Virus record (IMG/VR): IMGVR_UViG_3300045988_017676
Location: 1 to 36,465 of that record
DNA length: 36,465 nucleotides
Reading direction: 5' to 3' (one strand)
Source: a virus
Shown here one piece after another: positions 5,966 through 36,465 of this stretch. The number at the start of each line of letters is the position of its first letter. The first letter of the stretch is position 1. A program made the translations under genes and the position numbers. A model generated the notes under the pieces. The model made no database searches, was not told where the DNA came from, and saw only the letters and a program-made list of their open reading frames with translations.

Positions 5966-6021
5966 GCGCCCTTATTAAATAATCCAATTAAATAGTAAGC
6001 GATAATAGGAGGAAAATCAAG

Positions 6022-6681
6022 ATGAAAAAATTTGAATTAACCAGTGAATTTGTGACTTTTTTAGGAAAGAAGCTTTTTAGGATTAAGGCACTAATCTCTT
6101 TTGGGAATGTGGAAGAGGGAGAACTTGGTGGATATGTGGAGAAAGAAGAGAACCTTAGCAACGATGGCAATGCTTGGGTGTCCGGCGATGCTTGGGTGTA
6201 CGGCGATGCTGAGGTGTCCGGCGATGCTTGGGTGTACGGCGATGCTGAGGTGTGCGGCAATGCTAGGGTGTACGGCGATGCTAGGGTGTACGGCGATGCT
6301 AGGGTGTACGGCGATGCTAGGGTGTCCGGCGATGCTGAGGTGTGCGGCAATGCTTGGGTGTACGGCAATGCTTGGGTGTCCGGCAATGCTTGGGTGTCCG
6401 GCGATGCTTGGGTGTACGGCGATGCTTGGGTGTACGGCGATGCTAGGGTGTGCGGCAATGCTGACTACGCCACAGTGCATGGATTTGGCTCCGAATATCG
6501 TACAACTACATTTTTTAGGACAAAAGCAGGAGATATTGGCGTGAGATGTGGTTGCTTTTATGGCACTTTGGAGGAGTTTAGAGCAAAGGTAAAGGAAACG
6601 CATGGGGAAACTAAGACTGCGAAAGAGTATTTGATGGTTGCAGATCTTATGGAGTTTAGATTTTCGAAGGAGGAAGCATAG
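6022..6681 (+). CDS. Hexapeptide-repeat (beta-helix-type) protein with a conserved C-terminal Cys-containing domain
   Basis: Sixteen G[DN]A[WRE]V[SYC] units, then ...VRCGCFYGTLEEFRAKVKETHG... SD TAGGAGGAAAA. Confidence 0.85.
   Translation: MKKFELTSEFVTFLGKKLFRIKALISFGNVEEGELGGYVEKEENLSNDGNAWVSGDAWVYGDAEVSGDAWVYGDAEVCGNARVYGDARVYGDARVYGDARVSGDAEVCGNAWVYGNAWVSGNAWVSGDAWVYGDAWVYGDARVCGNADYATVHGFGSEYRTTTFFRTKAGDIGVRCGCFYGTLEEFRAKVKETHGETKTAKEYLMVADLMEFRFSKEEA
6166..6453 (+). repeat. 16 tandem 18-nt coding repeats GGC-RAT-GCT-(TGG/AGG/GAG)-GTG-T(C/A/G)C, plus a degenerate 17th unit to 6471
   Basis: Units were written out one by one. 14 of 18 positions are invariant in all 16 copies. Confidence 0.97.
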
Positions 6682-15122: not shown

Positions 15123-15195
15123 TGGGTGCATAGCTCAGTTGGTAGAGCGATGGTCTCCAAAACCATATGTCATCGGTTCGATTCCGATTGCGCCT
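15123..15195 (+). tRNA. tRNA-Trp: tRNA-Trp (anticodon CCA)
   Basis: Folded by hand. Acceptor GGGTGCA/TGCGCCT. D arm GCTC-AGTTGGTA-GAGC. Anticodon arm ATGGT-CTCCAAA-ACCAT. T arm ATCGG-TTCGATT-CCGAT. Discriminator G. No encoded CCA. Confidence 0.92.
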
Positions 15196-15199
15196 GTTG

Positions 15200-21951: not shown

Positions 21952-21992
21952 AAGGCATTAGCACATAGAGATATGTGTTATTTTTATGCCTT
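21952..21992 (+). terminator. Nested hairpin, terminator-like
   Basis: AAGGCAT...ATGCCTT enclosing CACATA...TATGTG, followed by TT. Confidence 0.45.
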
Positions 21993-22079
21993 TTGGTCAG
22001 TAGATTAGACCTTAAACAGTCAATTCGTGGTGGATGGTTACACACCTTAAACAACCTAAGACGAAAGGAGAATAGGAAC

Positions 22080-22628
22080 ATGAAAACAGATTTTTTAAAA
22101 GGACTTGGATTGGAGCAGGATGTAATCGATAAGATTATGGCAGAGAATGGAAAAGATATTGCAGCTGAAAAGGCAAAGACAACCAAAGCAGAGGGTGAGC
22201 GCGACAATTACAAAAGTCAGCTTGAGACAGCAACAGAATCTTTGGAAAAGTTTAAAGATGTTGACCCAACAGCTATGCAGGGAGAAATCGACAAACTGAA
22301 TCAGCAGTTAAAAGATAAAGATGCCGAGTATGCTGCAAAAGAAGCGGACCGTATCTTTTCCGACACGATCAAAGAAGCAATCAAGACGGCCGGCGGTCGC
22401 AACGAAAAAGCAGTTATGGCTATGCTTGATATGAACGCTTTGAAAGAATCGAAAAACCAGTCTGAGGACATCAAGAAAGCATTGGAAACCGTAAAGGAGT
22501 CTGATGCTTATTTATTTGGCTCTGATGAGCCTTTTAAGAACCCAGTGGGAGCAACTGGTGGTTCTGGTACTGGTGGAGATAACTTCTCTGCAATCAGAGC
22601 GGCTATGGGGCTTCCGGCAGAGAAATAA
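22080..22628 (+). CDS. Scaffolding protein (Phage_GP20 type)
   Basis: MKTDFLKGLGLEQDVIDKIMAENGKDIAAEKAK is a typical GP20 N-terminus. SD AAGGAGAA. The track ORF has a spurious N-terminal extension. Confidence 0.88.
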   Translation: MKTDFLKGLGLEQDVIDKIMAENGKDIAAEKAKTTKAEGERDNYKSQLETATESLEKFKDVDPTAMQGEIDKLNQQLKDKDAEYAAKEADRIFSDTIKEAIKTAGGRNEKAVMAMLDMNALKESKNQSEDIKKALETVKESDAYLFGSDEPFKNPVGATGGSGTGGDNFSAIRAAMGLPAEK

Positions 22629-22652: not shown

Positions 22653-23510
22653 ATGGCAAACACAATCGCATTAAGAAAAGCGTATTCTACAATGTTGGAT
22701 GAGGTTTACAAACTGTCATCCCTTACAGCGGTTCTGGACGGACCGAATGAACTTGTAAAAGAGGGAGCAAACGCGAATGAGATTCTGATCCCGAAAATGT
22801 CCATGCAGGGACTTGCGGACTACAATAAGCAGACAGGCTATGTTGCAGGTGATGTGACACTTGAATACGAGACTAAGAAATGTACTTATGATCGAGGCCG
22901 CATGTTCACTGTGGACGCTATGGACAATATCGAGTCTGCAGGTGTTGCCTTCGGACGTCTTTCCGGAGAATTTTTGAGAACACAGGTTGTTCCGGAGCTT
23001 GACGCTTGGAGACTTGCATCTTATGCAGGATACGCACCATCTACTAATAAAGTGGCAGCAGCGATTGCAGATGCGAAAGCCGGAATTGCAGCAATTAGAA
23101 AAGGCAAGACTGCTATTAAAAATGCGGAGGCAAAGCCGGAAACCTGTTATCTGTATATCTCTGCCGCACTCAAAGGGGATATTGAGGACCTTGATACAAC
23201 GGCATCCAAGAAAGTTCTGGAAGGCTGGGCTGGAGTGATTGAAGTTCCTGAGGGAAGATTTTTCGACAAAGTCACGTTGACAGCATCTGGAGCCGGCGGC
23301 TTTACAACAACAGGCGGTAAGAAGATTGATTTCTTGATTGTTGACAAGAATGCAGTAATCCAGAATCAGAAGCACACTGTATCTAAGATCATCACACCGG
23401 ATCAGAACCAGGATGCAGATGCTTGGAAGTTCGGATATCGTACCGTAGGTATCGCAGAGGCGAAAGATAACAAGAAAGTGGCTATCTATGTACATACTGC
23501 AGTGGTTTAA
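22653..23510 (+). CDS. Major capsid protein
   Basis: Follows the scaffold. 285 aa. RMFTVDAMDNIESAGVAFGRLSGEFLRTQVVPELDAWR is capsid-like. Confidence 0.88.
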   Translation: MANTIALRKAYSTMLDEVYKLSSLTAVLDGPNELVKEGANANEILIPKMSMQGLADYNKQTGYVAGDVTLEYETKKCTYDRGRMFTVDAMDNIESAGVAFGRLSGEFLRTQVVPELDAWRLASYAGYAPSTNKVAAAIADAKAGIAAIRKGKTAIKNAEAKPETCYLYISAALKGDIEDLDTTASKKVLEGWAGVIEVPEGRFFDKVTLTASGAGGFTTTGGKKIDFLIVDKNAVIQNQKHTVSKIITPDQNQDADAWKFGYRTVGIAEAKDNKKVAIYVHTAVV

Positions 23511-35407: not shown

Positions 35408-36334
35408 ATGGCGCATTTATTTGTAATCGCAGGACATGGAGCAGGAGATCCGGGAGCATGTGCAAATGGATTTAGTGAGGCAGAGAGAGTAAGAGCATTA
35501 GCAACGAGAATTAAAGCACTCGGCGGCGATCGGGTTACTCTGGGGGACTTTAACAGAGATTATTATGCAGACAATGGTATCAGTAGCCTCGACATCCCGG
35601 CTGACTGGCAGATCACAGAGTTACACATGGATAGCGCAGCAGCAGGAGCCAAAGGAGGGCATGTCATTATTAAGGCAGGATTTGATCCGGATCAGTACGA
35701 CAATGCCCTTGCAAGTTTTATCGGCGGTGTTTTACCGGGACGATCAAATCTGATTGTTGGCAGAGATGATCTCGCTAATCCAAACAGAGCAGCAGCAAGA
35801 GGATATAGCTATCGTCTCGTAGAGGTTGGATTTATTACAAATACTGGAGATCTTACGATTTTTAATAATCAGATGGATGGCATTGCAAGAGGAATCTTGG
35901 AAGCGTTTGGAATTAAGAGCAATGCAGAGCCACTAAAGCCAAAAACACCTCTATGGTATCAGGCACATGTATCTGGTAAAGGTTGGATGGATGCGGTAAA
36001 CGGAGGTATCGCCGGAACCGTGGGGCAGAATCGGGCACTGGAAGCAATCAAGATTGACATGCGTAAGTTGGACTTTAAGATCAAGGCTCGGGCGCATATC
36101 CAAAATATCGGGCTTAAGGATTTTGGATACATCAAACACGATACCGTCATCGGGACGACCGGAAAAGGTCTGCATTTAGAAGCAATCGAATTGATTGCAG
36201 AGGGGCTGAAAGGAAAGAAACTGCAGACCAGAGTGCATATCCAAGATATTGGTTGGACTCGCTGGACATCTGGCATGATCGGAACGGTCGGCATGAACAA
36301 GAAAATCGAAGCGATTGAGCTTAGATTGGTATAA
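35408..36334 (+). CDS. Endolysin: N-acetylmuramoyl-L-alanine amidase (Amidase_3-like) with 3 C-terminal ChW repeats
   Basis: VIAGHGAGDPGA, ELHMDS and VEVGFITN. Three ChW-like units YQAHVSGKGW...LEAIKI, ARAHIQNIG...LEAIELI and TRVHIQDIGW...IEAIELRL. Confidence 0.92.
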   Translation: MAHLFVIAGHGAGDPGACANGFSEAERVRALATRIKALGGDRVTLGDFNRDYYADNGISSLDIPADWQITELHMDSAAAGAKGGHVIIKAGFDPDQYDNALASFIGGVLPGRSNLIVGRDDLANPNRAAARGYSYRLVEVGFITNTGDLTIFNNQMDGIARGILEAFGIKSNAEPLKPKTPLWYQAHVSGKGWMDAVNGGIAGTVGQNRALEAIKIDMRKLDFKIKARAHIQNIGLKDFGYIKHDTVIGTTGKGLHLEAIELIAEGLKGKKLQTRVHIQDIGWTRWTSGMIGTVGMNKKIEAIELRLV

Positions 36335-36402: not shown

Positions 36403-36425
36403 GTTAGTAACACGTTAGTAACAAA
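36403..36425 (+). repeat. Tandem 11-mers GTTAGTAACAC/GTTAGTAACAA; candidate integrase arm-type sites
   Basis: 22/23 identical to 182-204. Abuts and overlaps the start of the 45-nt terminal repeat. Confidence 0.5.
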
Positions 36426-36465
36426 AATGCTTGAAAACCCACTAAAATCGTGATATGAAATTAAA
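36421..36465. repeat. 45-nt terminal direct repeat, right copy
   Basis: Identical to 1-45. Confidence 0.9.

Follow-up and report, generated by a model that had tools for sequence, protein, structure and literature searches.

How can a gene hold sixteen tandem copies of an 18-nucleotide (nt) unit that agree at every silent site and differ only where an amino acid changes? This question is raised by a stretch of viral DNA (IMG/VR virus record IMGVR_UViG_3300045988_017676, positions 1 to 36,465; here called the window, meaning all 36,465 nt) in which an open reading frame (ORF) at 6022-6681 encodes a protein with a repeated hexapeptide. The preferred reading, given a probability of roughly 0.65, is that the repeats form the core of a solenoid like that of YdcK, that they are homogenised by copying within the array while selection keeps the surface heterogeneous, and that the protein is an early host-directed module. 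The array and its edge are as follows.

6166..6453, plus strand: sixteen homogenised 18-nt units, G-[DN]-A-[WRE]-V-[SYC], predicted solenoid core (in-frame unit table, Tandem Repeats Finder and pattern search).
6454..6471, plus strand: degenerate edge unit 17, GGCAATGCTGACTACGCC, encoding GNADYA, which opens the conserved 'DYA' junction to the C-terminal domain (unit table and alignment).

Tandem Repeats Finder reports a single array (6166-6462, period 18, 16.5 copies, score 419). When the ORF is cut in frame, all 16 units fit the consensus GGC-RAT-GCT-(TGG/AGG/GAG)-GTG-T(C/A/G)C. Variation is found at nt 4 (A in 5 units, G in 11), nt 10 (T in 8, A in 5, G in 3), nt 11 (G in 13, A in 3) and nt 17 (A in 8, C in 5, G in 3); the remaining 14 nt are invariant in 16 of 16 units and there are nine unit types, as an initial annotation of this DNA had described. 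Its picture of an invariant G-A-V scaffold with three combinatorially varied residues per hexapeptide is likewise upheld. It had placed the end of the array at 6471 because the degenerate unit 17 fills 6454-6471. A degenerate pattern for the unit has 16 matches in the window, every one of them inside the array, compared with 0.03 in shuffles. The D-Y-A motif is almost invariant in an alignment of 60 homologues.

Two further claims of the initial annotation stand only in part. That every difference between units is nonsynonymous is true here, but only four sites are polymorphic and the array alone is not significant: with about 14 of 18 sites nonsynonymous, a rough estimate of the chance that all four would be so is (14/18)^4 = 0.37. 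The pattern is significant because it is replicated over 147 arrays (see below). That an Asn unit comes after every Cys unit is true of 3 of 3 cases in the window array but is due to chance rather than a property of the family, in which Asn follows Cys in 60% of cases compared with about 60% after any residue (Fisher p = 0.85).

Relatives of the protein are widespread. By tblastn they are found in 84 deposited phage genomes, with hosts that include Streptococcus, Bacillus, Vibrio, Aeromonas, Edwardsiella, Xanthomonas, Bacteroides, Mannheimia, Mycobacterium and Fusobacterium. A large protein collection yields more than 7,800 homologues (E-value at most 1e-10), IMG/VR yields 455 relatives, and GTDB genomes of many phyla yield 75 loci. 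The phages and prophages that carry the family have hosts among the Firmicutes, Proteobacteria, Bacteroidota, Actinobacteria and candidate phyla. At each homologue locus examined, 5-25 copies of an 18-nt unit form an array, and the silent bases vary by locus (GGC/GGT, GAT/GAC, GCT/GCA/GCG and GTG/GTA/GTC/GTT). A set of 147 distinct arrays, each of at least eight units (2,433 units in total, from phages and prophages of many phyla), was pooled, and the variation within and between these arrays is given here.

Third positions of codons 1, 2, 3, 5 and 6: 0.07-0.12 within arrays, 0.37-0.71 between arrays, ratio 0.10-0.28.
Nt 4, 10, 11 and 17: 0.39-0.57 within arrays, 0.48-0.73 between arrays, ratio 0.78-0.91.

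In 35 of the 147 arrays the third positions show no variation at all, and 26 arrays vary at nt 4, 10, 11 and 17 alone, over 16 different silent backgrounds. Silent sites that are uniform within arrays and divergent between them argue for concerted evolution, and the window array can be classified, by its sequence pattern, as a tandem array under concerted evolution with polymorphism kept at three codons. The initial annotation had proposed very recent amplification or concerted evolution, together with selection. Concerted evolution and selection on the alternate residues are borne out; 'very recent amplification' is less apt, and continuing homogenisation is preferred because the same regime is found across many phyla. 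Ordinary synonymous divergence between units with a fixed number and order, which the initial annotation had named as evidence that would count against its view, is absent from most relatives, although a few, P0261 among them, do have ordinarily diverged hexapeptide units.

Because the three variable codons are interleaved with homogenised silent sites within 18 nt, homogenisation cannot spare them, and either selection for heterogeneity or site-specific hypermutation is required. The residues found at the three positions in the family are as follows.

Position 2 of the hexapeptide: N 60%, D 37%.
Position 4 of the hexapeptide: R 32%, W 31%, E 14%, Q 10%, K 7%.
Position 6 of the hexapeptide: Y 49%, S 27%, C 13%, F 5.5%.

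TGG (Trp) is present in 147 of 147 arrays, and most arrays add a basic residue and an acidic or amide residue to it. At position 4 the codons fall into two nearly exclusive one-step networks, TGG/CGG/CAG or TGG/AGG/GAG. The Arg codons AGG and CGG occur together in 3 of the 147 arrays (odds ratio 0.02, p = 1e-17); CGG accompanies CAG (odds ratio 34), and AGG accompanies GAG (odds ratio 6.3) and AAG. As the same residue classes are reached through two codon sets, the pattern suggests that Trp together with a basic residue and Glu or Gln is maintained by selection on amino acids rather than by hot spots.

Hypermutation by a diversity-generating retroelement or another site-directed mutator acting on the four nt positions would explain why variation is limited to the same four positions in many arrays. 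This explanation is nevertheless scarcely credible. No template copy of the unit lies anywhere in the window, a scan of 21 ORFs gave no reverse transcriptase, and the substitutions are spread over T, A, G and C instead of being adenine-specific; on these three grounds the array was rejected as the target of a diversity-generating retroelement. That the same residue classes are encoded by either of two codon sets, nearly exclusive of each other, is a signature of residue selection, and the differences between isolates, described next, are whole-unit copies with linked silent markers rather than point changes.

Metagenomic relatives whose flanks are 95-99% identical in nucleotide sequence to the window have arrays of 10-30 units in unrelated order on the same silent background, and many proteins have identical N- and C-terminal domains and lengths that differ by multiples of six amino acids (aa). 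Since the metagenomic relatives are mostly short-read assemblies, isolates were checked. In the Streptococcus thermophilus phage isolates Sfi19, SFi18 and CHPC919, array divergence is 3.3-4.6% compared with 0.13-0.25% in 2,384 nt of flanking sequence (p = 1e-6 to 3e-10), a rate 13-33 times faster. Whole units have been replaced, together with a linked silent marker (GCT-GAG versus GCA-AGG), and a rare GGARVY unit has been copied; judging from these markers, the swaps are cases of intra-array gene conversion. Five Vibrio breoganii phage isolates have identical end domains and proteins of 200, 255 and 260 aa, and two of the five have a frameshift or stop within the array. Block duplications are seen in phiRM10 and P0019. 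The in-frame length variation anticipated for 18-nt units is thus found both among relatives at large and among the Vibrio isolates.

That the array, or the number and order of its units, might come from collapse or expansion during short-read assembly was also raised in the initial annotation. Many metagenome and draft contigs do end within homologous arrays, frameshifts or stops lie inside the array in some deposited relatives, and the exact window protein is absent from a collection of 15 billion sequences. An artefact is nonetheless highly improbable. The longest exact repeat within the array is 48 nt and each 54-mer is unique, so reads of at least 100 nt resolve the array and collapse is unlikely. 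Like arrays are found in Sfi19 and SFi18 (presumed from their deposition dates, 1999-2000, to be Sanger sequences) and in other isolates, and the reading frame is intact into the conserved C-terminal domain. Metagenome or draft contigs that start or end inside the homologous array include L111, L124, L125, L134, L137, L144, L149, L151, L155, L159, L161 and L164; unit counts from such assemblies are unreliable.

The array could instead work at the level of DNA, as iterons, a recombination hot spot or an array of binding sites, with its reading frame incidental or secondary. It is a GC-rich island (62% compared with 41% for the window) adjoining replication and recombination genes. In all phyla, about 94% of units have G as the third base of codon 4 (nt 12), and in two alternative frames changes at nt 4 or nt 10 leave the amino acid unaltered. 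This possibility is very unlikely, however, as arrays from different phyla keep the same peptide period, G-[DN]-A-x-V-x, yet are free to differ in their silent bases, and conserved N- and C-terminal domains always flank the array in frame. The near-fixed G at nt 12 is accounted for by the presence of Trp (TGG) in every array together with homogenisation, and the +2 frame reads A-M-L-G-C-T in the window but V-T-L-G-Y-P in phiRM10. The alternative frames were also considered as real genes and rejected: they are unconserved between phages and are by-products of a stop-free repeat.

Spurious long ORFs pass through this stop-free repeat in the window at 6101-6544 (plus strand), 5988-6458 (minus strand) and 6091-6603 (minus strand). 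In public records (loci L004, L005, L002, L006 and L168-L171), homologous arrays have been annotated in the wrong frame or strand, as an 'MFS-type transporter' in Aer_P220, a minus-strand coding sequence in Acidovorax AP1 and orf129 in Sfi19. Others are labelled 'glycerol kinase' (Javan phages) or 'CRISPR spacers' (Vibrio phages).

The gene that holds the array has the following parts.

6007..6012, plus strand: Shine-Dalgarno-like AGGAGG, 9 nt 5' of the ATG (read from the sequence).
6022..6681, plus strand: complete 219-aa ORF, YdcK-like hexapeptide beta-solenoid protein, isoelectric point (pI) 4.69 (ORF list, Pfam and PHROG).
6022..6165, plus strand: N-terminal beta domain, aa 1-48, conserved in the family and resembling the N-terminus of YdcK (NCBIfam, phmmer and AlphaFold).
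6454..6678, plus strand: conserved C-terminal alpha/beta domain with four strands and two helices (AlphaFold predicted local distance difference test [pLDDT] 88.9 over 75 residues).

The protein belongs to Pfam PF18836 (YdcK-type beta-solenoid; 67.5 bits against a cut-off of 30, E-value: 3.3e-19, in nine stretches) and to PHROG 7964 (E-value: 1.4e-105) and PHROG 5070 (E-value: 1.7e-61), both labelled as of unknown function. Its N- and C-terminal parts match the separate fragment families phrog_20149 and phrog_20532. In a phmmer search of PDB the only match is YdcK of Salmonella (2f9c/2pig; E-value: 6.6e-12), in an alignment that starts at residue 21 and spans the N-terminal domain and solenoid. 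These matches agree with the initial assignment to a beta-solenoid. YdcK of Salmonella and E. coli (2F9C, 2PIG) is thus homologous over both regions, is the best fold match and shares the motif G-[DN]-A-[RW]-[IV]-x (e.g. GNARIT and GDARVL), but it is encoded on the chromosome, is 326 aa long and has repeats that have diverged in the ordinary way, without a homogenised array. The NCBIfam YdcK_fam match lies within the N-terminal domain (residues 17-47), and the YdcK equivalog NF040481 aligns with residues 17-89 alone (58 bits against a cut-off of 350). The window protein is therefore a homologue of YdcK and not its equivalog or orthologue. A search of 5,426 complete E. coli genomes gives no nucleotide match. 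The N-terminal domain (AlphaFold pLDDT 77-84) is identical in many relatives that have different arrays.

In the full-length AlphaFold model the ends have a pLDDT of 77-92; the solenoid is below 50 but has one 4-residue strand per six residues. The best PDB match to this model is YdcK (2pig; E-value: 0.01, TM-score 0.27, with the solenoid at pLDDT below 50). From the alternation of the strand and the homology to YdcK, Gly, Ala and Val would lie inside the solenoid and the variable residues would point outward. If the fold is a left-handed beta-helix, each turn would comprise three hexapeptides.

Several other families of short-repeat solenoids resemble this one. LpxA-type left-handed beta-helix acyltransferases have in common with it the hexapeptide period and the alternation of aliphatic and small residues, and public records label relatives 'putative acyltransferase' or 'trimeric LpxA-like'. 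In contrast to these enzymes, the phage units are perfect, without inserted loops, and number from 4 to 31. No His is found among the invariant residues of the 60-protein alignment, and Hexapep (PF00132) is absent among the Pfam matches of the window protein at E-values up to 10, so it is not placed with the left-handed beta-helix acyltransferases. A non-enzymatic role seems probable because there is no Hexapep match, no invariant His and no inserted loop, and because length is free. Bactofilins (PF04519) are triangular beta-helices with about 18 residues per turn, and some relatives are annotated 'polymer-forming cytoskeletal protein'. The phage protein differs in having N- and C-terminal capping domains and scores below the bactofilin gathering threshold (23.9 compared with 27.9 bits).

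In NeuO, a proven enzyme, a 7-nt repeat unit at the 5' end of the gene switches expression on and off. The window repeat, by contrast, is always in frame and would itself form the solenoid. NeuO is the O-acetyltransferase of E. coli K1 prophage CUS-3 and is, like the window protein, a hexapeptide-repeat protein encoded by a prophage; NeuO is described as phase-variable (PMC3046976). Candidatus Liberibacter phage records (12) also match the window protein by tblastn. The hypervariable tandem-repeat genes hyvI/hyvII of Liberibacter prophages were considered as a related system and rejected, as they encode autotransporters (PMC3708911).

The C-terminal domain has the motif GFGS..RTTTFF...V.CGCFYGTL.EF. 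It has no fold match in PDB (best E-value: 0.24), no Pfam or NCBIfam match and no match to YdcK. In BFVD (viral structures) it matches the C-termini of phage proteins with pentapeptide repeats, leucine-rich repeats or other solenoids. A search of 1.84 billion representatives gives 1,159 clusters at an E-value of at most 0.001. The best 150 matches comprise 94 hexapeptide solenoids, 3 pentapeptide-repeat proteins, 30 short or stand-alone proteins and 23 others, a few of which have CxFGxx repeats or helix-turn-helix-like N-termini, and the position of the domain is almost always C-terminal. One protein with the domain, P0254, has near-perfect GADLRGAYLR repeats; other examples are P0258, P0239, P0192, P0233, P0249 and P0135. 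From these matches the architecture appears to be that of an interchangeable repeat rod joined to a small conserved C-terminal domain, which suggests a broader class of 'repeat rod plus common domain' phage proteins.

Pentapeptide-repeat proteins (Qnr, MfpA and AlbG) are likewise rod-like solenoids of near-perfect short repeats, and it is phage proteins with pentapeptide repeats that carry the same C-terminal domain. Their repeat has five residues and forms a right-handed quadrilateral helix (PMC8145042). The DNA-mimicking or gyrase-protecting role of these proteins is not an established property of the phage members found here.

The window is predicted to be the genome of a temperate siphophage related to phages of Mediterraneibacter (Ruminococcus) gnavus. 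The Pfam-based gene order is integrase, repressor, Rha, Bro-N, small ORFs, the repeat gene, Sipho_Gp157, AAA_24 (Sak4-like), ERCC4 nuclease, primase, packaging and structural genes, holin and ChW-amidase endolysin. Rha and Bro, 5' of the repeat gene, are anti-repressors. The virulent S. thermophilus phage Sfi19 has the same order orf229-Gp157-AAA ATPase-helicase, where orf229 is the homologue; 1.3 kb upstream of it lies orf183 (511-1059 of locus L167), which is the anti-CRISPR protein AcrIIA6 (PDB 6eyy, E-value: 2.6e-107). The phiRM10 homologue stands before a Gam-like/Rad52 recombination module, and that of a T7-like Aeromonas phage, at 3.3-3.9 kb, precedes the gene for the phage RNA polymerase. 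The placement among early genes noted in the initial annotation therefore holds in several types of phage.

The same annotation suggested that the acidic protein might act as a DNA mimic or decoy. In its fuller form, this proposal is that an acidic rod of roughly DNA width binds and blocks a restriction enzyme, an AddAB/RecBCD-type nuclease or gyrase. The acidity is real (pI 4.69, with an array net charge of -10), and 69% of the 147 arrays are net negative. T7 keeps ocr in its pre-RNA-polymerase region, where the homologue of the T7-like Aeromonas phage is found, and the gene is an early one, lying downstream of AcrIIA6 in Sfi19. The C-terminal domain is fused elsewhere to pentapeptide repeats, proteins with which have been described as DNA mimics (PMC3089455, PMC8145042). 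Against this, charge averages only -0.19 per unit and 20% of the arrays are net positive, where DNA mimics of the Ocr and ArdA type are expected to be strongly and consistently acidic. Trp, Tyr and Arg are abundant on the predicted surface, unlike those of known mimics, and YdcK is the sole solved structure matched by sequence. No PADLOC-DB family matches the window protein at an E-value of 1 or below, in a library that models defence systems and says little on anti-defence. Mimicry of DNA is improbable and is not favoured, although the shared C-terminal domain speaks for it.

The preferred model for the origin and action of the array is as follows. Each 18-nt unit would encode one short strand plus a turn. 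As the comparison of arrays shows, units overwrite one another, and blocks of units are duplicated or deleted, by intra-array gene conversion, unequal exchange or slippage. Silent differences are in this way erased within an array, while the arrays of different phages drift apart. Selection for a heterogeneous surface would restore or retain the mixture of residues (N/D at position 2; W, a basic residue and E/Q at position 4; Y/S/C/F at position 6). The result would be a rod or surface module without enzymatic activity, free to vary in length and joined to a small conserved C-terminal domain. This module may act on a host component early in infection, by binding, as a decoy or in evasion, which is the weakest step of the model. 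The rapid reshuffling would then reflect either host-phage conflict or merely a surface that is structurally constrained yet tolerant. The functional reading we prefer, a speculative one, is that of a variable rod or surface module acting early on a host component.

Unit order is near random. Neighbouring units have opposite charges more often than in shuffled controls (z = 4.5) and Trp-Trp pairs are too few at lags 2 and 3 (z about -3.5), with small effect sizes of about 15%. These biases are weak signs of constraints of surface compatibility. An array may have anything from 4 to 31 units, and unit counts are evenly distributed modulo 3 (46/52/49), which indicates that the ends of the solenoid need no fixed relative orientation.

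Such observations are also what a purely structural explanation would predict, and this is a strong rival, possible although rather unlikely in our estimate. In it, the mixed outward residues keep a solenoid with a Gly/Ala/Val core soluble and in register through charge pairing and the avoidance of Trp ladders; reshuffling is neutral repeat instability, and there is no conflict and no specific target. The conservation of restricted alphabets across phyla, the charge and Trp biases, the otherwise near-random order and the tolerance of any unit number all fit. The order effects are small, however, and the explanation accounts neither for the presence of Trp in 147 of 147 arrays nor for the retention of the gene in early regions of very different phages.

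A number of points weigh against the model of a selected, host-directed surface. The heterogeneity could be selected purely for folding or solubility, with no conflict. No lag-3 (one-turn) periodicity of the variable residues was found, and the z-scores for order are somewhat inflated, as the shuffling controls ignore block duplications. The handedness, the three units per turn and the outward placement of the variable residues are putative, as the AlphaFold solenoid, with its pLDDT below 50, is too uncertain to fix them. Most close relatives are short-read metagenome assemblies in which many contigs end within the array, and some of the apparent variation in copy number may be artefactual; in Sfi19, SFi18 and CHPC919 the genes are of equal length with a single copy number. 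In the full-text literature nothing was found on the function of the family or the evolution of its repeats, and no experiment on any member.

A bolder extension, and an unlikely one, is that the protein is a self-reshuffling recognition scaffold. Each hexapeptide would be a three-residue 'word', and gene conversion would rewrite the words and so rapidly retune binding to a host target that is variable or repetitive. Nucleic acid, a polymer or a defence protein may be the target, and the C-terminal domain may be a common effector or anchor. PUF repeats, transcription activator-like (TAL) repeats and antibody paratopes read their ligands with residue types such as N/D, W, R/K, E/Q and Y/S/C/F.

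The repeats of TAL effectors in Xanthomonas are tandem and nearly identical in nucleotide sequence, with few variable codons at which all variation is amino-acid changing. Their number and order change by recombination, and the variable residues are the functional read-out. These repeats are the closest conceptual parallel to the phage array, as an analogy without homology. A TAL repeat is a 34-aa alpha-helical unit that reads one DNA base, whereas the phage units are 6-aa strands of a predicted beta-solenoid with no known ligand, and close phages have unrelated unit orders.

While the fold and the profile families are already known, no description of this repeat regime was found in the full-text literature. 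It offers an unusually clean natural case in which concerted evolution and selection for heterogeneity oppose one another within a single 18-nt unit, and in which two independent codon 'alphabets' arrive at the same residue classes, in a widespread family whose genes lie in early regions or regions of host takeover. Should the variable surface have a ligand, the protein would be a new modular scaffold and its gene a candidate arms-race locus; if it binds nothing, it is still a useful model for the solubility of minimal solenoids. There is also a practical side, as the arrays break short-read assemblies and one protein has been split into several PHROG families.

Some minor features of the window and its relatives deserve mention. 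Positions 1-45 are identical to 36421-36465, and these 45-nt ends would be either the overlap of a circular assembly of a 36,420-bp genome or the core of a 45-bp prophage attachment site. The terminase genes are closely preceded by a tRNA-Trp gene (anticodon CCA; 15123-15197, plus strand). Trp is more frequent in the repeat gene than in any other gene of the phage (3.65% compared with 1.11% overall; 8 of 112 Trp codons). No clear link between the two emerges, as phiRM10, which has the repeat gene, and RG-TP1, where the annotation shows no such ORF in the syntenic place, both carry tRNA-Asn at the equivalent site. The head-gene region contains an Rfam GP20-b cis-regulatory RNA motif (21995-22058, plus strand; 47.2 bits against a gathering score of 36.2), at the 5' end of ORF 21975-22628 and upstream of 22653-23510. 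Streptococcus phage Javan174 has a 15-nt sequence repeated perfectly in tandem (AAAAATTCAAATCTA; 5.3 copies, 100% identical; 1288-1367 of locus L003). It comes after a gene labelled 'replication initiation protein' and some 130 nt before the homologue of the repeat gene, and may represent iterons. The endolysin of the window (35408-36334, plus strand) combines Amidase_3 with three clostridial hydrophobic W (ChW) repeats, which is consistent with a host among the Clostridia/Lachnospiraceae.

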